Source: Desulfobacterales bacterium (lineage in GTDB: Bacteria > Desulfobacterota > Desulfobacteria > Desulfobacterales > G963662235). From it: a DNA stretch of 64,000 nt. The DNA is taken from positions 182,109-246,108 of the forward strand of contig OY759308.1 in the NCBI GenBank assembly GCA_963662235.1. Reading direction: 5' to 3'. Each line of letters opens with the position of its first letter. Positions within the stretch are counted from its first letter, which is position 1. Below the pieces are notes generated by a model. The model ran no database searches. It was not told the DNA's origin and was given only the letters and a program-made list of their open reading frames with translations. The position numbers and the translations under genes were made by a program. Positions 6,876 to 53,855 of the stretch are shown here, one piece after another.

Positions 6876-7766
6876 GTGTTTTCAAGAAAACATCCATATC
6901 TATTTTTTATATTAGTTTTTATTTCTATAACCTCTTTTTCATCTGCTTTAATGTTGTTTTTAGGCAACAATAAAAAAAAAGAGTTTATTAATAGCTCCGA
7001 AACTGTCGGTATAATTGAAATTAAAGGCATTATCGAAGATTCTAAAGAAGTTTTGGAGCTATTAAAAGAACTTAGAGAAAATAACAAAATTAAATCTATA
7101 CTGTTGCGTATAGAATCTCCAGGAGGTGCAGTCGGACCTTCTCAAGAAATTTATCAAGAAGTCCTTAAAACCAAAAAAAAGAAAAAAGTTATAGTCTCAT
7201 TTGGAACTATTGGAACATCAGGTGCTTACTATATTGCCTCTGCAGCGGATGGTATTATGGCTGTTCCCGGAACTGTAACTGGCAGTATCGGTGTTTTAAT
7301 GGTGTATAATAATTTTCAAGAATTATTAAGCAAGATAGGTTTAAGCACTAAAGTTATAAAAAGCGTACAATATAAAGATATAGGCTCTCCAAATCGCCAA
7401 ATGAGTGACGCTGAAAAAAAAATCTTACAAGACTTTGTTGAAAAACTTCATACCCAATTTATAAACGATATCGCATACGGTCGTAATATGGAGCTTCTTA
7501 AAGTACAAGAACTCGCAGATGGTAGAATATATACAGGAGAAGAGGCACGTGACCTTAAATTGATAGACAAATTGGGTAACTATCAAGATGCTATTGAATG
7601 GGCAGGACGAGTTGCAGGTATAAAAGGTAAAATAGACACTTACTATCCTCAAAAGAATCAAAGCTTTATGGAAAAAATCCTTGATATGAAAAGCTTAAGT
7701 AATATCTCTAAAGTTATATTCCATCCAAGTAGTTATGCTGCTTTTCTTTATGCTCCATCTCTATAG
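6876..7766 (+). CDS. sppA: Signal peptide peptidase SppA, 36K type (peptidase S49)
   Basis: GTG start and an N-terminal TM helix. S49 signatures are ESPGGAVGPSQEIYQEV and GTSGAYYIASAADGIMAVPGTVTGSIGV. Confidence 0.85.
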   Translation: MFSRKHPYLFFILVFISITSFSSALMLFLGNNKKKEFINSSETVGIIEIKGIIEDSKEVLELLKELRENNKIKSILLRIESPGGAVGPSQEIYQEVLKTKKKKKVIVSFGTIGTSGAYYIASAADGIMAVPGTVTGSIGVLMVYNNFQELLSKIGLSTKVIKSVQYKDIGSPNRQMSDAEKKILQDFVEKLHTQFINDIAYGRNMELLKVQELADGRIYTGEEARDLKLIDKLGNYQDAIEWAGRVAGIKGKIDTYYPQKNQSFMEKILDMKSLSNISKVIFHPSSYAAFLYAPSL

Positions 7767-7784: not shown

Positions 7785-8729
7785 TTTTTAGATAAAATTT
7801 TTAAAAAAAAGAAACAGAATGTCTTTCCCAAAAAACTTCAAAACAAGATAGTCGCTATTTTAAAAGAGAAGAAAAATTGTAAAAGCAAAAGCGAAGAGAG
7901 AAATTACTTAGAAAATGCCGAAGAGATTTTTTCTGAAATAAGGCTTGCGTTTGATAAAAACAAAAACTCTTTAACAAATAGCGTTATAAACAAAATAGTA
8001 TTAGGCGAGTTCGATAAAGCAGAAAACATTTTAAACAAATCGATTGAAGAAAACGAAAAAAAAACAAACATAAAATTATACGATTTCTATAGATTAGCAC
8101 TCCTTAAAAAATTGGCGTTAGAGTATAAACAAAGCGAGGAATATTATACAAAAGCGTTAAAAATTGAATCTTCTGATACACTTATCCTAAAATCTTATGC
8201 TAACTTATTACTCTCTTACAAAAAACCCAAAACAGCACTTAAATTTTTACTCAAAGCCCTTAAAGAAGAAAAAATAAGGTTCGGAAATAAAAGCCCAATT
8301 ATAGCCGAAAGTTATAGTAAAATAGCTTACGCTTACACACTATTAGAACAAAAAGAAAAAATCTTTTTTTACCTTAAAGAAGCTCTTATTATAAATGAAA
8401 ATACATTTGGAAAGTTTCATATAAAAACAGGCGACTCTTTAAAAGCTATCGCTATGTTTTTTGCAAAATCAGAAGAAGGGAAAAAAAATGCTATTAAGTA
8501 TTTTGAACAAGCCCTTGATATTTACGAAAAAACCTATGGAGAAAAAAATCTTGAAACTGCCTATCTTATGCTCCATTTTGCAAACTTGCTTTACAATTTA
8601 GAAGAAAAAAAAAGTGCTTTAAACTATTTTGAAAAAAGCGAAAAAGTTTTTACAATTTTTTTCGGCCCAGACGACCCTACAACAAAGTATGCTGTATTTA
8701 AAAAAGAGTTAATAGATATGAAAAAATAA
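7782..8729 (+). CDS. TPR repeat protein
   Basis: The ORF track starts at TTG 7773, inside the repeat; I prefer the ATG at 7782 (MFLDKIFKKKK...). Multiple TPR-like helical repeats are present (YSKIAYAYTLLEQKEKIFFYLKEALIINE, AIKYFEQALDIYEKTYGEKNLETA). Confidence 0.6.
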   Translation: MFLDKIFKKKKQNVFPKKLQNKIVAILKEKKNCKSKSEERNYLENAEEIFSEIRLAFDKNKNSLTNSVINKIVLGEFDKAENILNKSIEENEKKTNIKLYDFYRLALLKKLALEYKQSEEYYTKALKIESSDTLILKSYANLLLSYKKPKTALKFLLKALKEEKIRFGNKSPIIAESYSKIAYAYTLLEQKEKIFFYLKEALIINENTFGKFHIKTGDSLKAIAMFFAKSEEGKKNAIKYFEQALDIYEKTYGEKNLETAYLMLHFANLLYNLEEKKSALNYFEKSEKVFTIFFGPDDPTTKYAVFKKELIDMKK

Positions 8730-14592: not shown

Positions 14593-14789
14593 GAGAGCTT
14601 TGCACAAGCGCATTTTTTAAGAATTTAAAACAAACAATGTTTTTTATTCTTAAGATTTTTTTAAGGGTAAATGCCCTAAAAAGCTTATTATACATAGCTT
14701 GCCTTCTTTTGCCCTTTTTTTTGGTTCGATGTATAAACATACTACTTTACCAAAAAAAAGAACAAAGTCAGGCATTGTTCAAAGCTCTC
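14593..14789 (-). mobile_element. MITE, subfamily 2, full copy (197 bp)
   Basis: Termini are GAGAGCTTTGCACAAGCGC (left) and GCATTGTTCAAAGCTCTC (right). On the minus strand the hairpin is CTTTTTTTTGG / CCAAAAAAAAG around the loop TAAAGTAGTATGTTTATACATCGAA. The flanks read tTTAGg / TTAGGc, a possible 5-bp TSD. The copy sits exactly at the AT-rich / GC-richer compositional boundary. Confidence 0.8.
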
Positions 14790-21121: not shown

Positions 21122-21586
21122 AATCGTAGGGGCGTATTGCCATACGCCCTCTCAACAATGCAATCACCATCAAAAACAATTGGTGCAATTGTTCGTGGAT
21201 TTTAATCTGCTGTAACAAAACAGATAAATCACTTGATACAAACACTTAGTCAAAAATTGTGGTAACGCAATTATTATGAGAGCTTTGCACATAGCTCTAT
21301 TTTGTAATATTTTTGTGGTGAAGTAGTATATTAATACGTCGAACCCAAAAATATTACAAAAGAGAGCGTCAGTCTTTATAGGGTTTTTAGGAGCTTTTGT
21401 GAAATTATCAAAAGTTGATATTTTATTAAAAACTACTATTTTTTCATAAAAAAACATTATGTGCAAAGCTCTCTATTATGAACATATCATACGCAATGAA
21501 AAAATGAGCATGGGCGTATAGCAATACGCCCCTACGAAAAAACAAATTGTACGGAAATGATTGAATATTACAGGAAGACCTTTAGG
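21122..21586 (+). pseudogene. Decayed RayT-type (REP-associated Y1) transposase C-terminal relic, copy 1, interrupted by a MITE
   Basis: Translates as VGAYCHTP...SPSKTIGAIVRGF*SAVTKQINHLIQTLSQKLW*RNYYE | MITE | HIIRNEK, with in-frame TAA stops. It is bounded by GGGCGTAT-tgcc-ATACGCCC-type hairpins. Confidence 0.7.
21278..21473 (+). mobile_element. MITE, subfamily 1, full copy (196 bp) with 6-bp TSD TATTAT
   Basis: GAGAGCTTTGCACATAGC...CATTATGTGCAAAGCTCTC is flanked by TATTAT at 21272-21277 and 21474-21479. The paralogous uninterrupted site at 47911-47926 reads GCAATTATTATGAACAT. Confidence 0.95.
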
Positions 21587-35429: not shown

Positions 35430-35479
35430 AATGGAATTATCTGATAAGATCAAAAAGGGCAAAGAGAGGACTTGACCCC
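35430..35479 (+). mobile_element. Right-end fragment (50 bp) of the IS-like element, abutting the truncated recombinase gene
   Basis: AATGGAATTATCTGATAAGATCAAAAAGGGCAAAGAGAGGACTTGACCCC aligns with 40895-40953, including the terminal repeat. Confidence 0.75.
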
Positions 35480-35886
35480 ATTTATTGATTCTGAAAGAAT
35501 GGTAATAAATATAAAGGGTGCAAAGGGCATGAAAGATAGAATATCTTTGCTTTCGAAGCATTTGCTTGAATTATTACGAAATTACTTCAAAGCATATAAA
35601 CCTAAAAAATATCTCTTTGAAGGTCAAAATGGAGGTAAATATTTGCCAACCAGTGTGGCAAATATTTTAAAGAAAGCGGTACTGAAAGCTGGAATCTGTA
35701 AAACCGTGACTACCACATATGCTACGCCACAGTTTTGCAACTCATCTTCTTGAACAAGGCACTGATTTAAGATATATTCAGGATTTGTTGGGGCATAATA
35801 GTTCAAAAACGACTGAAATTTATACTCATGTATCAAAAAAGGCAATTGATAAGATTAGAAACCCAGTCAATGATTTTTTTGATTGA
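35480..35886 (+). pseudogene. Tyrosine recombinase (XerC/D-like), 5'-truncated and frameshifted C-terminal fragment
   Basis: ...IDSERMVINIKGAKGMKDRISLLSKHLLELLRNYFKAYKPKKYLFEGQNGGKYLPTSVANILKKAVLKAGI.KTVT / frameshift near 35710 / [56 protein letters not shown]. The catalytic-region motifs KDR, H.LRH, LLGH and IYTHV are present. Confidence 0.85.
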
Positions 35887-35980
35887 GGAGATCAAAATGA
35901 TAAAAGAAAAATATATACAATTGTGCTTAGCCCGCCAGTTTGGAGAAATAAACACAATAGAGTTTACACAATCGTTAGCG
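35887..35980 (+). other. attI-like junction, copy 1, ending in core site GTTAGCG (35974-35980)
   Basis: This 94-bp segment follows the recombinase stop and is duplicated at 42278-42371. Strong similarity between the copies falls off just past the GTTAG core. Confidence 0.6.
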
Positions 35981-36047
35981 CCAAGTATAGAAAAAACCGT
36001 GCAACAGTAAATAATAATTGAACCAATATCAGGTAATAAATAAACAA

Positions 36048-39000
36048 ATGAATATAGAATGGAATACATTACGAGCATTTAACGGCGATGTTAAAAATGG
36101 ATTTGAAGAACTTGTTTGTCAATTAGCAAGAGCAGAACAAATTTTAAACAAATCTAAATTCATTAGAGTTGCTGCACCTGACGGTGGAGTTGAAGCGTAT
36201 TGTATCCTTTCTGATAATACAGAATATGGTTGGCAAGCCAAGTTTTTTGCGTCAATGGGCGATTCACAATGGACGCAACTTGATAAATCATTTAAAACAG
36301 CCTTTGCAAAGCACCCTGATTTGGTTAAGTATTACATCTGTATTCCATTAGATAGACAAGATCCGAGAATAACAATTACAAAGGGAAACCGTAAAGGGCA
36401 ACAAGTGAATCACTTTATGGATAAGTGGAACGCGAAAGTAACAGAATGGGAAGCATTTTCAAAATCAAACAACAGAACTATTGAATTTGAATTTTGGGGT
36501 AATTCAGAAATCTTTGAACGCTTAAGCAAAAAAGAAAACGAAGGGAAACTTTACTATTGGTTTGGCAAGGAAGAATTTTCTGATGAATGGTTCAAACAAA
36601 AACTTGATGAGAATATTAAAAATCTTGACAAACGCTACACCCCTGAACTGAATTTTGATTTACCTATTGCCAAGATATTTGACGGAATTAGCAGAGATAC
36701 TTATTTCAACGACCAATTCAATTCATATTTTGATGATTTACTTAGGCATTTTAGAAAAGCTGTTACTCATATTAAAAAAGCAAAGGTAAAAAACTATATT
36801 GATAAAATCAATTCAATAGTCACAACATTCAGACAACAATGTGAGCAAATTGATTTTGCTGAAATAAGTATTATTGACAATATTGGTTTGATATCACTGT
36901 TAGAAAGTGTCAGGAAAATTATTAACGATTTAATTCAAAAATTATATGAAATTGATTTCGCACTCAAAAAAGAAAAGAAAGAAAAAAGTAAATACGAAAG
37001 CGATACAAATAAATTTGGTTGGGATATAGAGCATTTCAGAAAATTGAATAGTTCAATTTATGAGTTTATTAATTTTCTAAATAGCACAACGGTTCTTTTG
37101 TCAAATAACCCTTTTATGCTTTTAACAGGGGAAGCAGGAATTGGAAAATCACATTTACTTGCTGATGTTGCAGTAAAAAGAAATAAACGAAATCAATTCT
37201 CAATTTTATTGCTTGGTCAACATTTCACAGAGGAAGAACCTTGGAGTCAAATCAAAAAACAACTTCAATTAAATTGTGAAAGAGATACATTTCTTTCTTC
37301 GCTAAATGCAAAAGCTGAAACAACACAGAGCAGAATTTTAATTCTGATAGATGCAATAAATGAAGGAAAGGGAAAAGAGTTGTGGAAAAATTATATTGCA
37401 GGTTTCATTACCGCAGTAAAAAAATTTCCAAACATAGGTGTGGTTTTTAGTATTAGAACTTCTTATGAAAAACTTTTAATTCCTAATCCCTTAAAGGAAA
37501 AGGATGAAATTTTAAAAGTCATTCATTATGGTTTCTCATACCACGAATACGAAGCATCAAAACGTTTTTTTGAAAATTTTGGTATTAAACAACCAAGTAT
37601 TCCTTTGCTTCACCCTGAGTTTTCCAATCCGCTATTCCTAAAATTATTTTGCGAGGGATTAAGTAAAAAAGGATTGCACGTAATACCTGACGGTTACGAG
37701 GGCATTTCTACCGTCCTTAATTTTTATCTTGAAGCTATTAACAATACAGTTTCGGAAAAACACAAATTGCCTGAAAACTTAAATCTTACTCAAAAAGTTG
37801 TAAAAAAAATCGCAAGTCAAATTGCTGATACTGATAATACTTACATAAAGTTTGATAATGCGTATAGTACTGTTACTCAATTTGCCAAAGACAACTCAAT
37901 TACCGAACCTGCTCAATTTTTTGAGGATTTAATACGGGAAGGACTTCTTACTCAAAACGTGTATTGGGAAAAAGGTGGAAATCCTTTTAACGGTGTGTAT
38001 ATTTCGTATGAAAGATTCAGTGACCATTTGGTTTGTGCTTACTTGTTGGAAAATCATTTTGACAAAAAGAATCCAACAAGCTCTTTTGCTGTCGGTAATA
38101 AACTACATAGATTGCTTGAAGACCAATATAAATCATATTACAACAAAGGTATTATTGAGGCTCTTTCAATTCAATTACCTGAATTGGCAAACATAGAACT
38201 ATTTGAAGCTGCACCTCACGCAAAGGAATTTAAAATTGTGGCACAGGCATTTGTTGAAAGCATTATTTGGAGAAAAAAAGAAACAATCAATGAGAAACTA
38301 AAAGATTACATAAATGAAGTCGTAATTCAAAAACACGACTTGCATGATGATTTTATTAGCACAATTCTTTTAATTACATCACAGCCGAAACACTATTTCA
38401 ATAGCGATTTCCTTCACAATCATTTGATGAAATTCAGTATGCCTGATAGAGATTCTTGGTGGACACCTTTTATTCATCATCAATACCCAAGCTATTCAGA
38501 TGAAATCACATCTATTCAACGAATGATTGATTGGGCTTGGACAGATGATAAACGAGAGAATATTTCTGACGAATCAATTCGCTTAATGTGTCAAACTTTG
38601 TTTTGGTTTACAACAAGCACCAACAGGGCGTTAAGGGATTCTACAACAAAAGCAATAATTTGTCTTTTAGAAGAACGAATAAGCGTTTTGATACAACTCA
38701 TTAAAACATTTGAACAGGTTAATGACCCTTATGTTTTGCAACGAGTATTTGCGGTTGCGTTTGGTTGTGCTGTTAGAACGAGCAAAACTGAATCTTTAAA
38801 AGAATTAGGAAACTGCATTTATGAATCGGTTTTCAATACGAAAAAAGTAATTCCTGACATTTTGTTAAGGGATTACGCAAGAGGAATTGTTGACTACGCA
38901 GTTTTCAAAGGTATCAAGTTTGAGTTTAATTTAAAGAAAATAAAACCTCCTTTCAAAAGCGATTTGCCAACTTCATTTCCAAGTAATGAAGATATTGAGA

Positions 39001-40316
39001 AGTACGAATATGACTATAAAGCAAAAGAATTCAAAGATTATTATTGGAGTTTGAATTCAATTATTAGTTCTATGAAAACAAATGTCGGAGGTCAGATGTA
39101 TGGTGATTTTGGTAGATATACATTTGAAAGTGCCTTTGATGGTTGGAGAGTGAACGCACAGCTATTAAGCAATTTGGCAGTAAAATGGATTGTTGAGAAA
39201 TATGGCTATGATGTAGAAAAACATGGAAAGTTCGATAGAAAGATTCCATGTGATGGAAGACATTCTCATATGACAGAACGAATTGGGAAAAAATATCAAT
39301 GGATTGCTTTTTATGAATTGCTTGCAAGAGTTTCAGACAACATTCCGTTTTATGAATATTCATATAGCCAAAATGCAAAGCCTGTTGACTATAAAGGACC
39401 TTGGGAGCCGTATGTTAGAGATATTGACCCAACAATTACAATAAAAGGAAATCTTGAAAATAAAAATGAAAAATTTTGGTGGAATCTTGTTGATTACAAC
39501 AATTGGAACCTTCCAAACAAAGAATGGATTTTCAAAACTGATGACTTACCAAATCCTTTGGGTATGATAAGTGTGTTTGACAAAGACGGTATTGAATGGT
39601 TGGTACTTGAAATTCTCAAATCATGGACAGAACCTGCAGACATCGGAGAAGATAAATATGAAAATCCGCATAAAGATTTATGGTATCAAATTAAAAGTTA
39701 TATAACTAATAAAAAAGACCATAAAAAAATTTTGAAGTGGTCAAAAGAAAAAAACTTTATGGGGCGTTGGATGCCAGAATCGACAAATAGGTATCAAATG
39801 TTTAGCAGAGAATATTATTGGTCAGCAGCTAATGAAACATTTAGAGACCCTTATTATAGTGGTGAAAGTTGGTCTAAAATTCACGACAACGAAACACATC
39901 AATTAATTGGCAAAGTTGCCGTAACAACCATTGATTATTTGTGGGAAGAAGAATTTGACGCTTCAAAAGAATCTACGATTAGTTTTTACAAACCCACAGA
40001 AATTCTTTTTAATCTTCTTGATTTACAATATTCAAAAATTGAAGGTCAACTTTTGAATAAAGATGGACAAATGATTTGCTTTGACCCTTGTGCAACATAC
40101 CCAACACATTCGTGCCTTGTGGTAAGAAAAAACGACTTGGTTCAAAAATTAGAAGACAATAACTTGAATATTTTTTGGACTGTCTTAGGCGAAAAACTAA
40201 TTATTGGTGGAGACCATTCAAAACGTAACGAATGGATAGGGCGATTAAATATTTCAGGAGTTATACATTACGAAAAAGAATTACTAAAACATATTCCATA
40301 TTATATTGAAATATGA
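36048..40316 (+). CDS. Avs-like antiviral STAND NTPase with N-terminal Mrr-like PD-(D/E)XK nuclease domain (cassette 1)
   Basis: 1422 aa counted from the ATG at 36048. The N-terminal FEELVCQLARAE...VAAPDGGVEAYC...GWQAKFF fits the Mrr-cat pattern D..(Q/E)xK. The P-loop is LLTGEAGIGKSHLLAD (nt 37128-37151) and Walker B is ILILIDAINEG. A ~900-aa C-terminal region carries no recognisable repeats and is the putative sensor. Confidence 0.65.
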   Translation: MNIEWNTLRAFNGDVKNGFEELVCQLARAEQILNKSKFIRVAAPDGGVEAYCILSDNTEYGWQAKFFASMGDSQWTQLDKSFKTAFAKHPDLVKYYICIPLDRQDPRITITKGNRKGQQVNHFMDKWNAKVTEWEAFSKSNNRTIEFEFWGNSEIFERLSKKENEGKLYYWFGKEEFSDEWFKQKLDENIKNLDKRYTPELNFDLPIAKIFDGISRDTYFNDQFNSYFDDLLRHFRKAVTHIKKAKVKNYIDKINSIVTTFRQQCEQIDFAEISIIDNIGLISLLESVRKIINDLIQKLYEIDFALKKEKKEKSKYESDTNKFGWDIEHFRKLNSSIYEFINFLNSTTVLLSNNPFMLLTGEAGIGKSHLLADVAVKRNKRNQFSILLLGQHFTEEEPWSQIKKQLQLNCERDTFLSSLNAKAETTQSRILILIDAINEGKGKELWKNYIAGFITAVKKFPNIGVVFSIRTSYEKLLIPNPLKEKDEILKVIHYGFSYHEYEASKRFFENFGIKQPSIPLLHPEFSNPLFLKLFCEGLSKKGLHVIPDGYEGISTVLNFYLEAINNTVSEKHKLPENLNLTQKVVKKIASQIADTDNTYIKFDNAYSTVTQFAKDNSITEPAQFFEDLIREGLLTQNVYWEKGGNPFNGVYISYERFSDHLVCAYLLENHFDKKNPTSSFAVGNKLHRLLEDQYKSYYNKGIIEALSIQLPELANIELFEAAPHAKEFKIVAQAFVESIIWRKKETINEKLKDYINEVVIQKHDLHDDFISTILLITSQPKHYFNSDFLHNHLMKFSMPDRDSWWTPFIHHQYPSYSDEITSIQRMIDWAWTDDKRENISDESIRLMCQTLFWFTTSTNRALRDSTTKAIICLLEERISVLIQLIKTFEQVNDPYVLQRVFAVAFGCAVRTSKTESLKELGNCIYESVFNTKKVIPDILLRDYARGIVDYAVFKGIKFEFNLKKIKPPFKSDLPTSFPSNEDIEKYEYDYKAKEFKDYYWSLNSIISSMKTNVGGQMYGDFGRYTFESAFDGWRVNAQLLSNLAVKWIVEKYGYDVEKHGKFDRKIPCDGRHSHMTERIGKKYQWIAFYELLARVSDNIPFYEYSYSQNAKPVDYKGPWEPYVRDIDPTITIKGNLENKNEKFWWNLVDYNNWNLPNKEWIFKTDDLPNPLGMISVFDKDGIEWLVLEILKSWTEPADIGEDKYENPHKDLWYQIKSYITNKKDHKKILKWSKEKNFMGRWMPESTNRYQMFSREYYWSAANETFRDPYYSGESWSKIHDNETHQLIGKVAVTTIDYLWEEEFDASKESTISFYKPTEILFNLLDLQYSKIEGQLLNKDGQMICFDPCATYPTHSCLVVRKNDLVQKLEDNNLNIFWTVLGEKLIIGGDHSKRNEWIGRLNISGVIHYEKELLKHIPYYIEI

Positions 40317-40328
40317 AAGAAAACCAGG

Positions 40329-40459
40329 CGGTAACATCGTATATAAAACATTTGGCAGTCAGTGGGTTATTGAGCTTTCTACTCCGTATCAAAAGTACTT
40401 GTAATTTGACATGAAAGTGTTTCTAAATGCCAAACATTTCATATACGTAACCGTTAGAG
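40329..40459 (+). other. attC-like site of cassette 1 (131 bp)
   Basis: Layout:
- inverse core CGGTAAC (40329-35), then a 3-nt spacer;
- L'' GTATATAAAACATTTGGCA;
- L' TGCCAAACATTTCATATAC (40428-46);
- spacer GTAACC;
- core GTTAGAG (40453-59).
GGCGgTAAC is the reverse complement (one mismatch) of the cassette start GTTAgCGCC at 35974. Confidence 0.75.
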
Positions 40460-40466
40460 AAAAAAC

Positions 40467-40953
40467 AAATAAAGGGGTCAAGTCCTCTCTTGGCTCTTTA
40501 ACTGTTTTTTAATAAAAAATGACATGTCCAGACCATTAAGAATACAATATCCAGATGCATAGTATCACGTAATGAATCGTGGTAGATGAGGTGAAAAGAT
40601 ATTTTTGTCACCGGATGATTTTGAAGATATTCCTGAAACCAAAAACCTTGCACCGGATACTGATAAAATAATATACCATGTATGTAAAGCATACAATGTT
40701 GAAGAATCTATGCTGTATATATCCCGGAGAGGTTGCTTTAATGAACCAAGAAATGTCTGTATCTATTTAGTAAGATATTTAAGGGGTGATACTTTAAAGG
40801 AAACCGGAGTGCTTTTTGGAATTAAAAAACATAGCACTGTCAGCAGTATAATAGATAGGGTCAAGCTTAATATAAAATCCAGTCAAAAATTTAAAAAACG
40901 GATAATGGAATTATCTGATAAGATCAAAAAGGGTCAAGAGAGGACTTGACCTC
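40467..40953 (+). mobile_element. IS-like element, internally deleted non-autonomous copy with decayed Y1-HUH/DnaA_C-like transposase
   Basis: ~20-bp TIRs: GGGGTCAAGTCCTCTCTTGGC (40474-) and CAAGAGAGGACTTGACCTC (-40953). The ORF remnant 40524-40949 reads MSRPLRIQYPDA*YHVMNRGR*GEKIFLS. It is then fused directly to the C-terminal DnaA_C-like HTH part (...RNVCIYLVRYLRGDTLKETGVLFGIKKHSTVSSIIDRV...). Confidence 0.8.
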
Positions 40954-41063
40954 TTCAATTACAAATCATTTCAGCGGACAGCTAATGCTCGCCACTGGAT
41001 TTCACGTCATATGGGAATAAAAATATAGATTGACGATGCCTCCTATTTGTCTTATGTTTAATT

Positions 41064-41348
41064 ATGAAAATATTCAAATGGAATTCAGAAAAAAACGAAA
41101 TTCTTGCAACTAATAGAGGAATTACGTTTGATGAAATAGTTCAAAGAATAAAATCTGGAGCTAAAGTAATCGAAACAGATCATCCAAATAAAGAGAAATA
41201 TCCAAATCAAAAAATAATGATTGTCGATGTGGATGGATATGCTTACTTAGTTCCTTTTGTGATTGATGGTGATGAATACTTTCTTAAAACAATCATTCCT
41301 AGCAGGAAAGCAACAAAGAAATATCTTGAAGGTAAAAATAATGGATAA
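41064..41348 (+). CDS. brnT: BrnT-family toxin (DUF497)
   Basis: FKWNSEKNEILATNRGITFDEIV...YLVPFVIDGDEYFLKTIIPSRKATKKY matches the BrnT pattern (F.WD..KN...HGI.F.E ... RIISAR.AT..E...Y). Confidence 0.75.
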   Translation: MKIFKWNSEKNEILATNRGITFDEIVQRIKSGAKVIETDHPNKEKYPNQKIMIVDVDGYAYLVPFVIDGDEYFLKTIIPSRKATKKYLEGKNNG

Positions 41349-41622
41349 AAAACATAATAAAATAATTCTTGACGATTATGAACAGGAAATACTGGAAGCA
41401 TATGAAAACGGTAAGCTTAGTCCATCGAAATCAGAAACAGACTTTAAGACTATTGCCCAAAATACATTAAAAAAGAATCGAAAAATTAATATAAGAATTT
41501 CAGAAAATGACCTTTCGGCATTACAAAGGAAAGCTGCCAGAGAGGGAATTCCGTATCAAACTTTAATTGGTAGTATACTTCACAAATACGCAAGTGGATA
41601 TATTAAAGAAACTGTTTTTTAA
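41341..41622 (+). CDS. brnA: BrnA-like antitoxin (RHH/CopG-type C-terminus)
   Basis: The ATG at 41341 overlaps the brnT stop. ...KKNRKINIRISENDLSALQRKAAREGIPYQTLIGSILHKYASG is typical of BrnA-type antitoxins. Confidence 0.7.
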   Translation: MDKKHNKIILDDYEQEILEAYENGKLSPSKSETDFKTIAQNTLKKNRKINIRISENDLSALQRKAAREGIPYQTLIGSILHKYASGYIKETVF

Positions 41623-41646
41623 CCAAAAGAGATATAATTAACATTA
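41617..41646 (+). other. Truncated attC-like site of the brnTA cassette (inverse core TTTTAAC overlapping the stop), cut by the next IS copy
   Basis: TTTTAAC (41617-23) versus the expected CTCTAAC, the complement of the cassette-start core GTTAGAG at 40453. Only ~30 nt remain before the IS left end at 41647. Confidence 0.45.
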
Positions 41647-42015
41647 AAATAAAGGGGTCAAGTCCTCTCTTGGCTCTTTAGCTGTTTTTTAATAAAAAAT
41701 GATATGTCCAGACCATTAAGAATACAATATCCAGATGCCTGGTATCATGTAATAAATCGTGGTAGACGAGGTGAAAAGATATTTTTGTCAAAGGAAGATT
41801 ATCAATCTTTTATTATTCTTCTTAAAGAGCTTAACGAAGTATATAATGTTAAAATAGTAGCTTATTGCCTCATGGAAAACCATTACCACCTCCTGATAAA
41901 AACACCTGATGCAAATCTTTCCAGGGCAATGAGACATTTAAATGGTGTCTACACACAGCGATATAATAAACGTCACAATTATGATGGGCAGCTTTTTAGA
42001 GGGCGTTATAAATCT
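41647..42015 (+). pseudogene. IS-like element left part with the N-terminal half of the Y1-HUH transposase, truncated by a MITE
   Basis: The left TIR GGGGTCAAGTCCTCTCTTGGC is at 41654. The ORF from 41704 reads MSRPLRIQYPDAWYHVINRGRRGEKIF...CLMENHYHLLIKTPDANLSRAMRHLNGVYTQRYNKRHNYDGQLFRGRYKS (HUH motif HYH). It ends at the MITE boundary at 42016. Confidence 0.8.
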
Positions 42016-42211
42016 GAGACCTTTGAACAATGTCATTTTTGTTCAATTTGAGGGTAAAGTAGTATATTAATACTTCAAGCCCGAAAATCGGGCAAAACAT
42101 GGCAAGCCTTTTAATATAAGCTTTTTAAAAGAAAAAGTAATGTTTTGTTTTTAAAGTTCAAAGTTCAAATTTAACAAATTTTTTAAAAATTAGCGTTTGT
42201 TCAAAGGTCTC
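42016..42211 (+). mobile_element. MITE, subfamily 2, full copy (196 bp) at a rearrangement junction (no TSD)
   Basis: GAGACCTTTGAACAATG...GCGTTTGTTCAAAGGTCTC. The left flank is transposase coding sequence (aaatct). The right flank is the recombinase 3' end (atactc). Confidence 0.8.
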
Positions 42212-42371
42212 ATACTCATGTATCAAAAAAAGGCAATTGATAAGATTAGAAACCCAGTCGATGATTTTTTTGATTGAGGAGATCAAAATGATAAAAGAAA
42301 AATATATACAATTGTGCTTAGCCCACCAGTTTGGAGGAATAAACACAATAGAGGTTACACAATCGTTAGGG
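42212..42371 (+). pseudogene. Second copy of the recombinase 3' end (last ~20 codons, frameshifted) plus attI-like junction ending in core GTTAGGG (42365-42371)
   Basis: ATACTCATGTATCAAAAAAAGGCAATTGATAAGATTAGAAACCCAGTCGATGATTTTTTTGATTGA... aligns with 35822-35980. Strong similarity falls off just past the GTTAG core. Confidence 0.75.
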
Positions 42372-42414
42372 GCAAGGCAAGGAGCTGCATACAAGAAATG
42401 GGAAACTTACTATA

Positions 42415-45096
42415 ATGGAATATATAAGAAAAAATATTGAACGTAAAATTAACTTTCATGAGTACAATAATAATCAGGAAGAGTTAAAGGTTCTTTATCA
42501 AGCCTATTTAGAGTATTTGATGATATACACTCTTGGATATTTGTGGAATAAGAACTTTTCTATTTGTGATTCTGAAACAAAATCCTACATATTAGACATT
42601 ATACAAAGACCTTCTATTGGTGATATTGAAATGGCTTGTAGGAAATTGGATGTGAATAAAGAAATTTTTAAAAATAGAGCTCTATCTCGTAGGTTCTCGA
42701 AATATCCTCAACTAAGAAATGAAAAAATAGGACATGGATATGTTTTCTCTGACTCTTCTTCTGAATTTGTAGGAGAGTTAAAAGAGTTTTGTGAAAACAT
42801 AAAAAATTCTGAACATACAATTTTTAAAGAGGATATTGATATAATAAAGGTGCTGAAACAGGAGAATGGTGCTTATAAAGGAATTACCTATAAGTCTGAT
42901 GGGTCTGATTATTACCCATGGAGTTTCCCTGTTGGTTCAAAAAAATTTGAAATAGGTGATATATATGGATATCATTCGAATTGTAAATATTTTAAGATAT
43001 CTCCTTTTGTAGAAATCCAAAATGAAAGTGAGTATTACACTTTTAGCTCAATATATGAACCACTATCTGGAAAATGTAAATACAACCGACTATTAAAAAG
43101 TGGAGTAGAATTTTTTGAGAATATTGAGTTCTGCAATTTGGATATTGAATCCGATAATGTAAAAAGAAAAACCAAGAATGGAACAATAATTAGTTTATTT
43201 CAGAAAAACTATACAAAATTTATAGAAACTTCCATTAAAAATAAAGTACTCGACTTTTTATTAAAATCCAAGCATTCGGTTACAGCTACAGTTTGGGGAC
43301 ATGGAGGTGTCGGGAAAACCGCAACAATTCAAAAAATATGTGATGAATTAGGTGCTGGCAATAATCGATATTTTGACTATATAATATTTACGACAGCTAA
43401 GGATAGATTCTACAACTATTTAACAGGTAATATTGAAGAATTAAACGAAAGGATTAACTCATGTGAAGAGTTGATTAAGTCAATTAATCAGGTAATTGTG
43501 AATGAGCCTGTCTTGAATATTGATAATATTACAGGCTTTCAACAAAAAATGTTGGTTATAATAGATGACTTTGAGACATTTGACGATGATGAAAAGTTGA
43601 AAATAGCTGATTTTATCAGAAAACTTGATGCATCAAAACACAAAGTACTAATTACAACAAGAGCAAATATTGTAATAGGTGAGGAAATTAAAACAAACGA
43701 ATTATCTTCTGATGAAACTTCACTGTTTTTAAAACAGGTATTTGCAAATGAGCTTGAAGAGCAAATATCAATAAAACGACATATTGAAGTTTTAGGAAAA
43801 CCCGAAATTAAAGATAAAGTACATTGGTTAACCAGTGGTAGACCTTTGTTTATATATCAATTGGCCTTTATTATTGCTCAAAAAGGTAATGTTGAAGACG
43901 CTTTGGAATTTGATATTAAAAAGTCTGATAATGCAATTGAGTTTCTATATGGAAGAATCTACAATTATTTATCAGATTTGGCAAAAGATATTTTTGTTGC
44001 CATAAGCTTGTTAGTAACAGAAAATGATTTGAGTAATGTGATAAAAAAATTATCCTACATACTAAATATTGAAGGAAATCAAGATGCTTTTGATAGTGCA
44101 ATAAGTGAATTAGTTAAATTGAAAATACTTGAAGTTAAAGAGGATAATTTCTTTTACATATATTCCAAAGAAATCCTTACTATCATGTCCCTGATGTATA
44201 ATAAAAGACCTGATAGTTTTAAAGGGAATTGTAATAGACGTCTCTTGCAAATCAGCAGAGATAAAAAGTTAGATAACGAACAAGCTCTATTGCAGTTTGC
44301 AAATACAAATCGTTATTCAAAGAATGAAGAAGAAGTTGTTAGTTCATATAAACAAATTTTGAATCGGGGAAATGCCCCAAAAAAAGTAAGACTACAGGCG
44401 ATTTTAAACTTAACGGCTTATCTCGTAATTGACCGTGGCAAAAGAGATTCTGCATTAAATATTTTAGAAGAATATTTTTCAAAATTCAATGATAAAGGAC
44501 AATATATCAAAATGATAGCCACATATTATTGGGCTAATGCTTCAGATGACCATAAGGAAAAATCGATTAAAATTTTAGGTGATTTTCTTTCTTCTCATCG
44601 TAACCTAAACGTTGATATAAATCTTGAACTATTAGGATTGCTTCTTACTTATAAAACGATTTTTGCTATTTCTAAGAAAGAAAGATTAAAAGATAGTTTG
44701 CATTATGATGAGATTTCGGGAACAGATTTTTCTAAGGCAAACGAGGCTTTAAAACAAGATTATAGGAATATTATTAAGTATCACGGTTGGCCTCTTTTTA
44801 ATTTTGTTGATTCTATTGATTTTAGTTCAATTTCTTCTGGTTCTAGACAAAATATTGTTACAGGTTTTTATCAGTTTTCAGAACTTTTTACAAGACTTGG
44901 AGATTATAAAAATGCAGCAAAAATTTGCGTATTTGCAATTGATAAATTCCCTGATAATTTTCAGAAGTTATTTCGAGCTAAATTAGGTCGTATTAAAAGT
45001 TTTAACTATAAACCATATGACAAACCTAAATCAAAAGAGATGTCTGATTTTGGTTTAATACTATCTAATGCAATTAATAAAAAGCCCAGCCCCTAA
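42415..45096 (+). CDS. STAND (NB-ARC-like) NTPase with an unassigned ~280-aa N-terminal domain and a helical-repeat C-terminus (cassette 3)
   Basis: 893 aa. Walker A is VWGHGGVGKTATIQKI (nt 43297-43320) and Walker B is MLVIIDDFETFDD. The C-terminal ~350 aa look helical/TPR-like. The N-terminus contains LRNEKIGHG (R-x5-H). Confidence 0.65.
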   Translation: MEYIRKNIERKINFHEYNNNQEELKVLYQAYLEYLMIYTLGYLWNKNFSICDSETKSYILDIIQRPSIGDIEMACRKLDVNKEIFKNRALSRRFSKYPQLRNEKIGHGYVFSDSSSEFVGELKEFCENIKNSEHTIFKEDIDIIKVLKQENGAYKGITYKSDGSDYYPWSFPVGSKKFEIGDIYGYHSNCKYFKISPFVEIQNESEYYTFSSIYEPLSGKCKYNRLLKSGVEFFENIEFCNLDIESDNVKRKTKNGTIISLFQKNYTKFIETSIKNKVLDFLLKSKHSVTATVWGHGGVGKTATIQKICDELGAGNNRYFDYIIFTTAKDRFYNYLTGNIEELNERINSCEELIKSINQVIVNEPVLNIDNITGFQQKMLVIIDDFETFDDDEKLKIADFIRKLDASKHKVLITTRANIVIGEEIKTNELSSDETSLFLKQVFANELEEQISIKRHIEVLGKPEIKDKVHWLTSGRPLFIYQLAFIIAQKGNVEDALEFDIKKSDNAIEFLYGRIYNYLSDLAKDIFVAISLLVTENDLSNVIKKLSYILNIEGNQDAFDSAISELVKLKILEVKEDNFFYIYSKEILTIMSLMYNKRPDSFKGNCNRRLLQISRDKKLDNEQALLQFANTNRYSKNEEEVVSSYKQILNRGNAPKKVRLQAILNLTAYLVIDRGKRDSALNILEEYFSKFNDKGQYIKMIATYYWANASDDHKEKSIKILGDFLSSHRNLNVDINLELLGLLLTYKTIFAISKKERLKDSLHYDEISGTDFSKANEALKQDYRNIIKYHGWPLFNFVDSIDFSSISSGSRQNIVTGFYQFSELFTRLGDYKNAAKICVFAIDKFPDNFQKLFRAKLGRIKSFNYKPYDKPKSKEMSDFGLILSNAINKKPSP

Positions 45097-45222
45097 CACT
45101 TTGTATAAGTAATGGCAGGCAAAGTGCTACATATCAAAATTTGTAGCCCGCTCAAACTGCGTGGCGGTTTGACAGGAAAGTACCACGCAATCTGCTACTA
45201 CTCATACAATTTACCGTTGGGC
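45091..45222 (+). other. attC-like site of cassette 3 (132 bp)
   Basis: Layout:
- inverse core CCCTAAC (45091-97), overlapping the TAA stop, then spacer ACT;
- L'' TTGTATAAGTA;
- L' TACTCATACAA;
- spacer TTTACC;
- core GTTGGGC (45216-22).
GCCCCTAAC is the exact reverse complement of the cassette start GTTAGGGGC at 42365. Confidence 0.8.
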
Positions 45223-45254
45223 ACAAGCAAAAAAACATACTGCAAAATTAGAGC

Positions 45255-46535
45255 ATGAGTGAATTTGACAATATAAAAATAGATGAGCTTCGTAAGGAGA
45301 TTCGGACATTTAATAATGATGAAAATGTACATAGATTAGAAAACTATTACAATTCCAAATCATTACCTGAGATTATGGGTTCGAGTAGAAAAGAATTAGC
45401 TCATAGCAATTTTCTTGCATGGATACTAAACAATGACGAAAGCCACATGCTTCGAGAGTATCCACTCAAGAAATTCTTAGAATTATTGGTTCTTTATAGT
45501 AAAGAAAAACAATTAAAGGCTTACAAAGAACTGTATGACTCAATTATTGTCTCTGACTTTGAATTAGAGAAGACTTTTATTGAAACAGAAAGAGCAATAA
45601 AAGGAGTTGGAAGACTTGATATTTATATTGAAACATCAATAAAATATGAAGATAAACGAAAATTGGTAAGATTAATAGTTGAAAATAAAGTTGGTACAAA
45701 AGAACATAGCGACCAAACTACAAAGTATTATGACTATTATGAAAAAATCAAGAAACAGCAGGATGAAATTAATATTTATGTGTTTCTTACACCTATTTCA
45801 AGTTTAGATTTAATGGAACTTGAAGAACCAGAATGCAGTTGCAAGGAATATATTCAAGTTAATTATCAATCAATCGTAGACTTTTTATTAGAACCTACAC
45901 TTCAAAAAAACATAACAGACAAGACAAAATTTATTATTACAGAATATCTTCAATCTTTAAGCCAGCCGACATTGGATAAAGAAGATGAAGAATATAAACA
46001 AGGATTAATTATGGCTTTAGGCACAGACGAAAGAAATCTCTTGACAAAATTTTGGGATAAAAATCAGAAATTAATACTTGCAGCGCTCTATGCAATTAGT
46101 TCTGATCCTGAACAGGATAAAGACACTAGAGATAGTGCTTCAAATGCTATTGGGAACCTATCTAATTCAGGGAAAAATAAAAGCTTATGTTCTATAAAAT
46201 TTAATGGAGTTGTCGAGGCTGAAAAGATTAAGAAATCTGATATTGGATTTTCAACAATAATGATTCTTGAAAAGAAAAAGCTGATTAATGATGAATCAAT
46301 TGAATTTCTAAAAAATGATAAATCATGTAGTTTCCGATTATTAAAATCAGCAGAAGAGATAACTGAAGGAGAAATAAAATATCGTAGATATAGACATAAC
46401 GAAGAACCCGAGTTGATTTACAATGATATTGGATATTATGTTGCAAGGAATTGGGGGACAAATAATATTGATAAGTTTATTAAAAACATGAAAGATAAAT
46501 TTAAGGAGCTTGAATATATTATACATGAAGAATAA
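45255..46535 (+). CDS. PD-(D/E)XK nuclease superfamily protein (cassette 4)
   Basis: ELAHSNFLAWILNNDESH and GRLDIYIE...LIVENKVGTKEHSDQTTKYY give a D...E-x-K motif. The C-terminal ~130 aa are unassigned. Confidence 0.65.
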   Translation: MSEFDNIKIDELRKEIRTFNNDENVHRLENYYNSKSLPEIMGSSRKELAHSNFLAWILNNDESHMLREYPLKKFLELLVLYSKEKQLKAYKELYDSIIVSDFELEKTFIETERAIKGVGRLDIYIETSIKYEDKRKLVRLIVENKVGTKEHSDQTTKYYDYYEKIKKQQDEINIYVFLTPISSLDLMELEEPECSCKEYIQVNYQSIVDFLLEPTLQKNITDKTKFIITEYLQSLSQPTLDKEDEEYKQGLIMALGTDERNLLTKFWDKNQKLILAALYAISSDPEQDKDTRDSASNAIGNLSNSGKNKSLCSIKFNGVVEAEKIKKSDIGFSTIMILEKKKLINDESIEFLKNDKSCSFRLLKSAEEITEGEIKYRRYRHNEEPELIYNDIGYYVARNWGTNNIDKFIKNMKDKFKELEYIIHEE

Positions 46536-46542
46536 TGCCAGT

Positions 46543-46673
46543 GCCCAACACGCAATAAAAAACATAGGGTGGAAAGTGCTAAATTTGAACGACATAACAT
46601 TTAAGAAACGGTTTGGTAACTTGATAGATAAGTGCTTCGAAGCGTCTTCCGTTTCTTATTGCCACCGTTAGTT
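46543..46673 (+). other. attC-like site of cassette 4 (131 bp)
   Basis: Layout:
- inverse core GCCCAAC (46543-49), then spacer ACG;
- L'' CAATAAAAAAC;
- L' GTTTCTTATTG;
- spacer CCACC;
- core GTTAGTT (46667-73).
GTGCCCAAC is the exact reverse complement of the cassette start GTTGGGCAC at 45216. Confidence 0.8.
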
Positions 46674-46694
46674 GTTATTAAAAAAACCGAACCA

Positions 46695-47579
46695 ATGGAA
46701 CAACATTTTAATTCTTCTGAATACATTAAGCATTTAGCAAATGAATTAATTAGGAATTTTGCTTTTTCAAGATCGGCAACAACACCTGTTTTAGTTGGTA
46801 GTGCCAGAGAAAAAGAAGTAATAAGAAAATTAGAATTATTACTACCAAAATCTATAGGGATTGGCTCTGGGTGTATAATTGATAGTTTTGGGAAAACCAG
46901 TAAACAGATGGATATAGTTTTATTTGAAAAAGATTTATGCCCAGTTTTTTGTATTAATGAATCCTCTGAAACCACATATTATCCGTGCGAAGGGGTTATT
47001 GCTGCTGGAGAGGTTAAAAGTAGCCTGAATTCAAAAGAATTAACAAATATATTTAATAAGGCTCAATCTGTTAAAGAATTAAAGCGGTTTACTGAGCTTG
47101 AGAAAAGTGATTTGTCAGGTTCAGGTTATTATGCATTCAGAAAATATGGAAATAGAACTAGTTTTGCAGGTGCTCCATCGGAAGATTACGACCAAGTTAA
47201 TAAATATACAGACCAAATTTTTTGTTTTGCTCTTTGTGGAGACCTGGAAATAACTGTTGAAACTCTTTCTGAAAAATATGAAAATGAACTAAAGAGAATC
47301 AATTTTATTAATGAGGTTAATCTAATCTCAATTTTGAATTATGGATTGATATTTTATTACAATGAAAAGGATAATACAATTAAAAATAATCTTAAAGATG
47401 GAGACTCCTTTTTTATAACTGGTAAACGTGAAAATAACTTTGAATTCCTTTTGTCTGCTTTACATAATGCAATTAATGATGGGAGAACGGTAAATATTAG
47501 AGCATATAACAGATACATTTCATTAAGCAATAGTGTTTCATTAATTGGTGGAATTAGAAAAAAAATTAACAACAGCTAA
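46695..47579 (+). CDS. DUF6602-like protein with a PD-(D/E)XK-type motif (cassette 5)
   Basis: The ATG at 46695 is preferred (MEQHFNSSEY...). GSAREKEVIRKLELLLPKSIGIGSGCIIDSFGKTSKQMDIVLFEKD...CEGVIAAGEVKSSL gives D...E-V-K. The family assignment is from memory and was not searched. Confidence 0.5.
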   Translation: MEQHFNSSEYIKHLANELIRNFAFSRSATTPVLVGSAREKEVIRKLELLLPKSIGIGSGCIIDSFGKTSKQMDIVLFEKDLCPVFCINESSETTYYPCEGVIAAGEVKSSLNSKELTNIFNKAQSVKELKRFTELEKSDLSGSGYYAFRKYGNRTSFAGAPSEDYDQVNKYTDQIFCFALCGDLEITVETLSEKYENELKRINFINEVNLISILNYGLIFYYNEKDNTIKNNLKDGDSFFITGKRENNFEFLLSALHNAINDGRTVNIRAYNRYISLSNSVSLIGGIRKKINNS

Positions 47580-47703
47580 CAGTGCATATATTTATTGGGG
47601 GTTGAATCGCTAATTTCAAAGTAATTACACTAAATTAGCTCCTTAACGTGGGATAAAGAATTGCTTCGAAATCCCCCAACAAAACATATGCTTAACGTTA
47701 GAG
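47574..47703 (+). other. attC-like site of cassette 5 (130 bp)
   Basis: Layout:
- inverse core AGCTAAC (47574-80), overlapping the TAA stop, then spacer AGT;
- L'' GCATATATTTATTGGGGG;
- L' CCCCCAACAAAACATATGC;
- spacer TTAAC;
- core GTTAGAG (47697-703).
AACAgCTAAC is the reverse complement (one mismatch) of the cassette start GTTAGtTGTT at 46667. Confidence 0.75.
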
Positions 47704-47731
47704 AAATAAAGGGGTCGAGTCCTCTCTTGAC
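47704..47731 (+). mobile_element. Left-end fragment of the IS-like element, immediately after the attC core site
   Basis: AAATAAAGGGGTCGAGTCCTCTCTTGAC matches the left ends at 40467 and 41647. Similarity is lost after ~28 nt. Confidence 0.65.
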
Positions 47732-47763
47732 TCAAAGTCGTACAAACATAGTACAAAATCGTA

Positions 47764-48027
47764 AATCGTAGGGGCGTATTGCCATACGCCCTCTCAACAA
47801 TGCAATCACCATCAAAAACAATTGGTGCAGTTTGTTCGTGGATTTTAATCTACTGTAACAAAACAGATAAATCAATTGATACAAACACTCAGTCAAAAAT
47901 TGTGGTAACGCAATTATTATGAACATATCATACGCAATGAAAAAATGAGCATGGGCGTATAGCAATACGCCCCTACGAAAAAACAAATTGTACGGAAATG
48001 ATTGAATATTGCAGGAAGACCTTTAGG
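47764..48027 (+). pseudogene. Decayed RayT-type transposase relic, copy 2 (uninterrupted; empty site for the 21278 MITE)
   Basis: Collinear with 21122-21277 plus 21480-21586. It shares the same in-frame TAA stops and carries one extra frameshift. It is bounded by the same GGGCGTAT..ATACGCCC hairpins. Confidence 0.7.
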
Positions 48028-48114
48028 GGCTGATAGAATTTCTTAGTGCGAATAATATTGCCCAATAGTAAAAAAAATTATTTCGTTATTTTGCAATCTT
48101 TAAAGAGACACTTA

Positions 48115-53706: not shown

Positions 53707-53855
53707 GAGACCTTTGCACATAATATTTTTTACAAAAAAATTTACAAAAGCCTATAAAGACTTACGCTCTCTTTTACTTTTGTTTTGGGTTCGACGTATA
53801 AAAATACTACTTCACCACAAAACAAAAGCAAAATAAAGCTATGTGCAAAGGTCTC
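53707..53855 (-). mobile_element. MITE, subfamily 1, short full copy (149 bp) with 6-bp TSD ACTATT
   Basis: GAGACCTTTGCACATAAT...CTATGTGCAAAGGTCTC is flanked by ACTATT at 53701-06 and 53856-61. The hairpin stem is CTTTTGTTTTG / CAAAACAAAAG. Confidence 0.9.

Follow-up and report, generated by a model that had tools for sequence, protein, structure and literature searches.

Decayed copies of a TIRtron, a Y1 element with terminal inverted repeats, in the integron-like cassette array of a low-GC relative of the Desulfobacterales

The window, by which we mean the whole 64-kb stretch of DNA analysed here, harbors an island at ~35430-48046, with a PUFA/PKS-type gene on one side and sdhB on the other. 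The host, which has a GC content of 31% and a SdhA 81% identical to proteins of Desulfobacteraceae MAGs, is assigned to a low-GC relative of the Desulfobacterales. When the island was annotated with Pfam, the gene order was found to be a truncated and frameshifted tyrosine recombinase, a NACHT-like gene, brnTA, and genes for NB-ARC, PDDEXK_4 and DUF6602 proteins (Table 1). Four attC-like sites of ~130 nt, one per gene and each running from a YAAC-type core to GTTRRRN, were recognized with a heuristic detector, and within the window they occur only in the island. They all fold end to end, with modest z values of -0.8 to -3.1. The detector is a local-arm score that permits an unpaired spacer, and its sensitivity is limited: inspection by eye revealed long sites and sites with poorly complementary cores that it had missed in another array (L110). 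For the site following the PDDEXK_4 gene it called 46592-46673, and the start at 46543 (GCCCAAC) was read by eye. A version with core-anchored arms gave nothing, and a looser one (any core, spacing of up to 200 nt) was dropped because it produced 5-10 false matches per 64 kb of shuffled sequence.

The recombinase at the head of the array is of the IntI/Xer type. The integron-integrase model TIGR02249 aligns to its C-terminal ~72 aa only, and the alignments to Xer models are contiguous. The IntI-specific extra domain is not present in the island recombinase, where just ~25 aa occupy the position of the IntI insertion. A conserved stretch of ~100 nt found 3′ of the recombinase stop ends in ...CAATCGTTAG, beyond which the two copies of the window and two unrelated loci diverge in sequence, and this junction looks like an attI. 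We call the array integron-like, a description that falls short of the classical definition of an integron. The recombinase loci compared were 35484-35985 and 42213-42376 in the window, 8001-8860 in L109, and 7988-8600 and 11566-12095 in L110. At these loci the recombinase, IntI-like at both ends and devoid of the IntI insertion, heads arrays of defence and toxin-antitoxin genes in the same orientation; the conserved stretch finishes with ...CAATCGTT(A/G)G at ~100 nt from its stop, and divergent sequence follows in every locus. A second copy of the recombinase 3′ end lies inside the array in the window and in L110 alike. Among the best 120 matches, the close homologues of the recombinase are all of 238 aa or less and look truncated.

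Five ends of one repeat family, belonging to an element that we identify below as a TIRtron, occur within this 13-kb island, against 0.01 expected for GGGGTCAAGTCCTCTCTTG with at most 3 mismatches in 64 kb. The left ends correspond to plus-strand matches at 40474, 41654 and 47711 and the right ends to minus-strand matches at 35461-35479 and 40935-40953; all five lie in the island, and no solo end was found elsewhere in the 64-kb window. The three left ends have in common a 30-nt block led by AAATAAA (repeat family D3), which starts at 40467, 41647 and 47704. Whether AAATAAA belongs to the element or to its target was a question put by the first-pass annotation of this DNA, and it is part of the element, since it is common to three left ends in three contexts and ATAAA is present in both contexts of the closest relative. 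The copy at 47711 reads GGGGTCGAG...TTGAC, and the end sequence of the lineage found in the window can also be written AAAGGGGTCRAGTC. The same annotation had listed all five ends, the three left ones with their AAATAAA, and their positions agree with ours; the sequence that it gave for the right end at 35479, CAAGAGAGG, has to be corrected to GGGCAAAGAGAGGACTTGACCCC.

Table 1. Coordinates of the element copies and of the neighboring features of the island (positions in the window)
Feature	Position	Strand	Basis
Remnant of a right end (~50 terminal nt of the element), flush with the truncated recombinase gene	35430-35483	+	Repeat D4, 89% identical to 40904-40960
Tyrosine recombinase (IntI/Xer-like), 5′-truncated, frameshifted, head of the array	35484-35886	+	Pfam Phage_integrase, NCBIfam
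attC-like site 3′ of the NACHT-like gene (1432 aa), last heptamer GTTAGAG	40329-40459	+	Arm score 15, end-to-end hairpin fold
TIRtron copy, 487 bp, internally deleted, pseudogenised, both terminal inverted repeats kept	40467-40953	+	Alignment to intact L002:553-1600
Left terminal inverted repeat AAATAAAGGGGTCAAGTCCTCTCTTGGCTC	40467-40496	+	Small hairpin, z = -2.9
Pseudo-ORF joining ~28 N-terminal codons of the Y1 domain to the ~113 C-terminal codons (DnaA_C-like HTH)	40524-40949	+	Translation
Right terminal inverted repeat AAAGGGTCAAGAGAGGACTTGACCTC, ORF stop TGA inside	40928-40953	+	Repeat match, translation
Second copy, left repeat and first ~104 codons of the Y1-HUH domain, MITE-truncated	41647-42015	+	Repeat D1, alignment, Pfam
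Unrelated 196-bp MITE, inverted repeat GAGACCTTTGAACAA	42016-42211	not assigned	Inverted repeat I17
attC-like site after the NB-ARC gene, CCCTAAC...GTTGGGC	45091-45222	+	Heuristic detector, fold
attC-like site after the PDDEXK_4 gene, GCCCAAC...GTTAGTT, weakest of the four	46543-46673	+	Score 10, fold z = -0.8
attC-like site 3′ of the DUF6602 gene, last heptamer GTTAGAG	47574-47703	+	Arm score 13, fold z = -3.1
30-nt left-repeat remnant, directly 3′ of GTTAGAG	47704-47733	+	Repeat D3, 93% identity

When the 487-bp copy was compared with its intact relative, the two aligned at either end and ~555 bp were missing from the middle. The junction is formed by two similar 13-mers, GGAAGATTATGAA and GGAAGAATTTGAA, which points to a microhomology deletion. 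The two ends are paired as inverted repeat I5 (40467-40499 with 40928-40960), and the right repeat can form a hairpin, GGTCAAG-N6-CTTGACC, with an MFE of -6.8 kcal/mol (z = -2.5). The reading frame at 40524-40952 contains two in-frame stops and joins residue ~28 of the intact protein to residue ~214. Bac_DnaA_C (PF08299) was detected by Pfam at 40605-40949 (E = 1.8e-11) and Y1_Tnp at 41704-42051 (E = 2e-14), the latter in the second copy, whose start is 92% identical to 40467-40625 (repeat D1) and whose alignment stops at ...AAATCT; the HYH is present there and the catalytic tyrosine region is gone. At the head of the array, the recombinase codons IDSER... start at 35484, directly after the right-end remnant, which we take to mark a fourth insertion site, in the recombinase gene and not at an attC. 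The region of the catalytic tyrosine is absent from all four copies in the window, and HYH alone was kept; none of them is thus able to move by itself, and all four are dead. The first-pass annotation had likewise recognized a coding remnant of Y1-HUH and DnaA_C-like type, an internal-deletion derivative with two nonsense codons and the truncation of the three remaining copies, all of which agree with our translations and alignments, and the HMM comparison that it proposed recovered both domains. An exact look-up of the 115-aa Y1 fragment of the window returned no gene on record. The 3′ codons of brnA and the adjoining DNA (AACTGTTTTTTAACCAAAAGAGATAT, 41610-41635) resemble the 5′ leader of the element (40500-40525, 41680-41705), with 81% identity over 26 nt, a resemblance that is perhaps due to chance in AT-rich DNA.

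Intact relatives are numerous. Using a composite of the two window remnants as query and a cut-off of E <= 1e-5, we retrieved 4,691 homologous proteins, nearly all of 310-342 aa and with both Y1_Tnp and Bac_DnaA_C; many of them are encoded on contigs of just 1-1.5 kb, a pattern typical of assembly-breaking repeats. When one genome per species was scanned, at least 592 genomic loci of the family were found, which span the Desulfobacterota, Nitrospirota, Nitrospinota, Gammaproteobacteria, Omnitrophota, Acidobacteria and others. Plasmids gave four matches, each with less than 40% identity, and the viral contigs searched gave none. The intact elements are ~1.05 kb long and contain one ORF of ~326 aa whose stop codon lies within the right repeat. 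All 17 intact proteins compared have H60-Y61-H62 and Y119-I-H-x-N-P without variation. The C-terminal domain profile-matches the DnaA domain IV structures 8btg (1.5e-9) and 1j1v (6e-7), and at the helix-turn-helix positions of these alignments the residues of the family differ from those of DnaA. Terminal inverted repeats of 26-34 bp (about 27) were found in intact relatives at 51 of the 83 loci covered by the inverted-repeat search, and the flanks were analysed in 53-54 elements re-delimited at the GGGG/CCCC run. The closest intact relative of the window copies (88% identical over the N-terminal half) is present as an identical element at two unrelated contexts, L002 and L003, indicating that the whole unit moves. 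Deletion derivatives similar to the 487-bp copy seem to be common in the family. Two short ones, at L085 2830-3092 and L102 3202-~3700, have kept both ends and lost most of the gene. An exact-repeat scan of metagenomes returned 16 stretches, mostly chance matches in unrelated, largely GC-rich sequence; the real ends among them are only those of L085/L096, L093, L094 and L097, all with short flanks.

RAYT-like genes with flanking inverted repeats were named TIRtrons, and their proteins TIRYT, by Di Nocera et al. 2013, who described a GGGGWSAS motif common to the repeats and the occasional occurrence of these as dimers or clusters (PMC3733652). The published set consists of 26 genes, mostly single-copy, and mobility of the whole unit was not claimed (PMC3733652). 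Quentin et al. 2018 placed 20 of the 26 TIRYT proteins in subclass 2.1 of the TnpA_REP-like HUH superfamily, reported a Bac_DnaA_C-like C-terminus in subgroup 2.1.2 and found GGGG[AT][CG]A[CG] to be unlike a DnaA box (PMC6006769). Among the papers searched, none that appeared after 2018 uses either term. By its sequence, the window element is a decayed member of this class. The intact relatives encode a RAYT-like Y1 protein with HUH and catalytic tyrosine (the window copies having HYH only), their genes are bounded by terminal inverted repeats and not by REPs (the 51 loci, and I5 in the window), and the C-terminal HTH extension of the Bac_DnaA_C type (PF08299, 8btg, 1j1v) is that of subclass 2.1.2. 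The window sequence GGGGTCAA fits GGGGWSAS at 7 of 8 positions, its last base being A and not S; many relatives carry GGGGTCAG, which fits at 8 of 8, and others GGGGTCAA. The repeats sometimes form dimers or clusters, as in the published TIRtrons. Unlike these, the window copies are decayed remnants, and the family goes beyond the published cases in that one unit recurs in unlike surroundings, has given rise to deletion derivatives and is present several times in one island, so that the relatives behave like an insertion sequence. A TIRtron is an IS-like element of ~1.05 kb with a single gene, whose product, TIRYT, combines a RAYT-like Y1 HUH nuclease with a DnaA domain-IV-like HTH. The first-pass annotation had described a TIR-bearing element of the Y1 family, as the Pfam matches and the repeats confirm; such elements are not new (PMC3733652, PMC6006769).

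The closest relatives of the catalytic domain are the RAYT/REPtrons, with the NCBIfam model REP_Tyr_transpos scoring 67.1 bits, below its cut-off of 80. There too, inverted copies of a short and partly palindromic sequence flank the gene, with GTAG as the conserved 5′ tetranucleotide in REPs and GGGG here. RAYTs are single-copy domesticated genes whose REPs are dispersed in hundreds of copies, whereas the repeated unit here is the gene together with its ends; the genome has GTAG-REP doublets of another kind besides. With IS200/IS605 elements such as IS608 and ISDra2, the family shares the Y1_Tnp HUH/Tyr domain, the lack of a target-site duplication and small hairpins at the ends. However, terminal inverted repeats are missing from IS200/IS605 elements, whose two hairpins are subterminal, dissimilar and on the same strand; the insertion point is 3′ of a fixed 4-5-nt target, and their TnpA of ~130-150 aa is devoid of an HTH domain. 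The present family has near-perfect terminal inverted repeats, no conserved target tetra- or pentanucleotide beyond its own repeat, and intact proteins of 310-342 aa with two domains.

We consider that the feature is best explained, with a probability of roughly 75%, as a dead non-autonomous TIRtron copy, one of four decayed copies of a single lineage in a 13-kb integron-like array whose cassettes are of defence and toxin-antitoxin type, and that its closeness to an attC is not a targeting rule. The element would have entered the dispensable array several times, or hopped locally, and would subsequently have been eroded by microhomology deletion, point mutations, the MITE and adjacent deletions. 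The closeness to attC could reflect tolerated insertion in the short non-coding leader of a cassette, or one junction inherited with a cassette. The copies most likely survive there because the array is dispensable. Since the element type has been known since 2013 and 2018 and the window copies are dead, the finding is largely ordinary: a dispensable cassette array contains decayed representatives of an element class that is known but has been little studied. What is added to the published picture is that the TIRtron family is very large and extends over several phyla, that conservation of the repeat core reaches well past the 26 published cases, and that the elements show IS-like behaviour, in that identical copies lie in different contexts, deletion derivatives and duplicated ends occur, and the target is not duplicated.

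Two of the left ends lie beside a GTTAGAG core (40453-40459 and 47697-47703), 7 nt and 0 nt before AAATAAA respectively, as the first-pass annotation had noted. This association may be real, and its two cases are possibly of one origin. If the junction arose only once and was then copied, the element would have been situated at the 5′ start of a cassette (TTAGAG after a G|TT crossover), which the recombinase moved or duplicated behind a different attC. Such a history would account for the identical GTTAGAG at both junctions, the other cores of the array being GTTGGGC, GTTAGTT, GTTAGCG and GTTAGGG; an AAAAAAC indel could account for the 7-nt difference, and 35835-35985 and 42226-42376 (96% identity) exemplify other duplications in the array with a GTTAG crossover at their end. 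However, the remnant at 47704, of which only 30 nt survive, has 2 mismatches in these 30 nt to the other two left ends, both attC sites are alike over ~20 nt at each end, so that GTTAGAG may simply be their own shared core, and the recombinase is truncated and has no known activity. We regard copying of a single junction as unlikely.

The other reading of the two junctions, put forward in the first-pass annotation as a preference for DNA near attC sites or their cores, is that this TIRtron lineage preferentially inserts at or just 3′ of attC, for example by recognizing the folded single strand or GTTAGAG, which would make it an attC-targeting element comparable to IS1111-attC elements and group IIC-attC introns. 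Several observations speak for it besides the two left ends 0 and 7 nt after GTTAGAG. A third left end lies 23 nt after an R′′-like heptamer, TTTTAAC (41617-41623). According to the first-pass annotation this end interrupts the attC of brnTA; of such a putative site just the heptamer, which overlaps the brnA stop, is present, and the 3′ half is absent. Every copy is oriented like the cassettes, and the closest intact relative (L002) is within a cassette, 81 nt past a clear attC. Y1 HUH enzymes use single-stranded hairpin-forming DNA, as established for IS200/IS605. If the insertions were independent, we estimate that the probability, by position alone, of two of the four in the island lying 0-7 nt from one of four cores would be ~4e-5 for the whole island and ~3e-3 for its native non-coding DNA.

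Among the relatives, however, such a preference is not supported. Mapping of their intact copies, the test by which the annotation had proposed in advance that its claim could be refuted, placed them, at the family level, at unrelated sites: an attC-like site was found within 100 nt of only 1 of the 51 delimited elements, in up to 3 kb of flank per side. The one case is L002, where the element is not at the core and lies past the apparent start codon of the cassette. No attC-like site adjoins the ends in the close relatives L104-L106 and L100-L103. Over the 40 nt that precede left ends, GTTRRR occurs 5 times where 3.8 are expected, which is no enrichment (P = 0.33), and the few cases lack an attC fold; the cores 4-12 nt upstream in L024, L043, L051 and L078 were rejected as attC ends for want of an end-to-end fold in the upstream DNA. 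The right flank of L003 was likewise rejected as the 3′ half of an attC, the matching 5′ half being missing from the left flank. Flanks and rebuilt empty sites are no more structured than control DNA of the same loci. In the window itself, the right-end remnant ending at 35483 adjoins recombinase coding sequence.

The likeness to IS1111-attC elements and group IIC-attC introns is that the copies lie in cassette arrays beside attC and in one orientation. The former have a DEDD transposase guided by a seekRNA and the latter are retro-homing ribozymes, and both insert at a fixed point inside attC in essentially all copies. Here, the protein is a Y1 HUH nuclease with an HTH and not a DEDD transposase, and the distances of 0, 7, 23 (questionably) and 81 nt, together with one copy inside a gene, reveal no fixed position and do not fit a fixed cleavage offset. 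Targeting of attC as a family trait is not supported, and for the lineage in the window we regard it as quite improbable. The narrower idea that the TIRtron lineage with TCCTC(T/C)C repeats in Desulfobacterales has gained a preference for the 3′ boundary of attC in integron-like arrays is equally doubtful. If it were true, this lineage would represent a third, mechanistically distinct class of attC-associated mobile elements and the first with a Y1 HUH enzyme. Integron hairpins would then be linked to HUH transposition, for which the evidence at hand gives no support.

The terminal repeats of the family share the core AAAGGGGTCA(A/G)(G/A)TC, i.e. GGGGTCA(A/G)(G/A)TC, both in the 51 loci and in the 53-54 re-delimited elements. 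Intact copies have a perfect 26-bp terminal inverted repeat, AAAGGGGTCAAGTCCTCCCTTGACTC, ~50 nt 5′ of the ATG, and its inverted partner carries the stop codon. It was foreseen in the first-pass annotation that the GGGGTCAAG repeats might be part of another element merely flanking the Y1 gene, and this is extremely improbable: the distance to the ORF is constant in more than 50 elements of several phyla (about 45-60 nt upstream for most), which together with the stop codon inside the right repeat indicates that the repeats belong to the gene, and repeat and gene recur as one unit in the different flanks of L002 and L003. In the 53-54 elements, positions -1 to -3 outside the GGGG are mostly A on both sides. 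Neither the 51 loci nor the re-delimited elements showed target duplication beyond chance, and in the latter no conserved sequence was found beyond the repeat, the flanks varying among copies. The inner palindrome GTCAAG-N-CTTGAC is frequent yet not universal, and it is the outer box of the repeat that is conserved rather than the hairpin. In 14 of the 54 elements, additional GGGGTC/GACCCC boxes are present no more than 60 nt beyond the ends (19 against 2.4 expected, P ~ 1e-11). Together with the four copies in 13 kb, these extra boxes suggest local re-insertion or end duplication. Partial or complete extra boxes were noted at L010, L018, L026-L028, L052, L056, L059, L061, L067, L070, L079, L082 and L100, the last of which has two complete right ends 55 nt apart.

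These features would be compatible with a mechanism in which the HTH domain of active relatives binds the GGGGTCA box at each end, GGGGTCAAGTC being the candidate double-stranded binding sequence of the DnaA_C-like domain. Such binding at both ends would account for the dependence of these Y1 elements on inverted repeats. The HTH may position a dimer on the two boxes, as suggested by the inverted conserved outer boxes, the DnaA-type HTH that binds double strands and the lack of the Y1 hairpin asymmetry. The HUH/Tyr domain could then cut and rejoin the DNA at or just outside the box, leaving the target unduplicated.

The MITE that truncates the second copy joins it to the recombinase 3′ fragment (Table 1), and its position between two truncated genes suggests recombination between two MITE copies. 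It belongs to a family of ~150-200 bp with the inverted repeat GAGACCTTTG(A/C)ACA(A/T), of which 9 ends were found in the 64-kb window against 0.24 expected. Other members lie at 14593-14789 and 53707-53855, single ends at 7766, 56264 and 62814, and one copy within 21300-21480. A repeated element of ~285 bp, bounded by REP hairpins in inverted orientation that carry a GTAG tag (GTAGGGGCGTATTGCCATACGCCC) and thereby similar to a REPIN doublet, is present at 47765-48046 and 21122-21585, and a MITE has inserted in the copy at 21122. Two assemblies of the same organism from other sequencing runs (L107 and L108) encode an identical SdhB and break off at the REP doublet on the border of the island, 197 nt downstream of the SdhB stop codon, which indicates that the island boundary breaks short-read assemblies.
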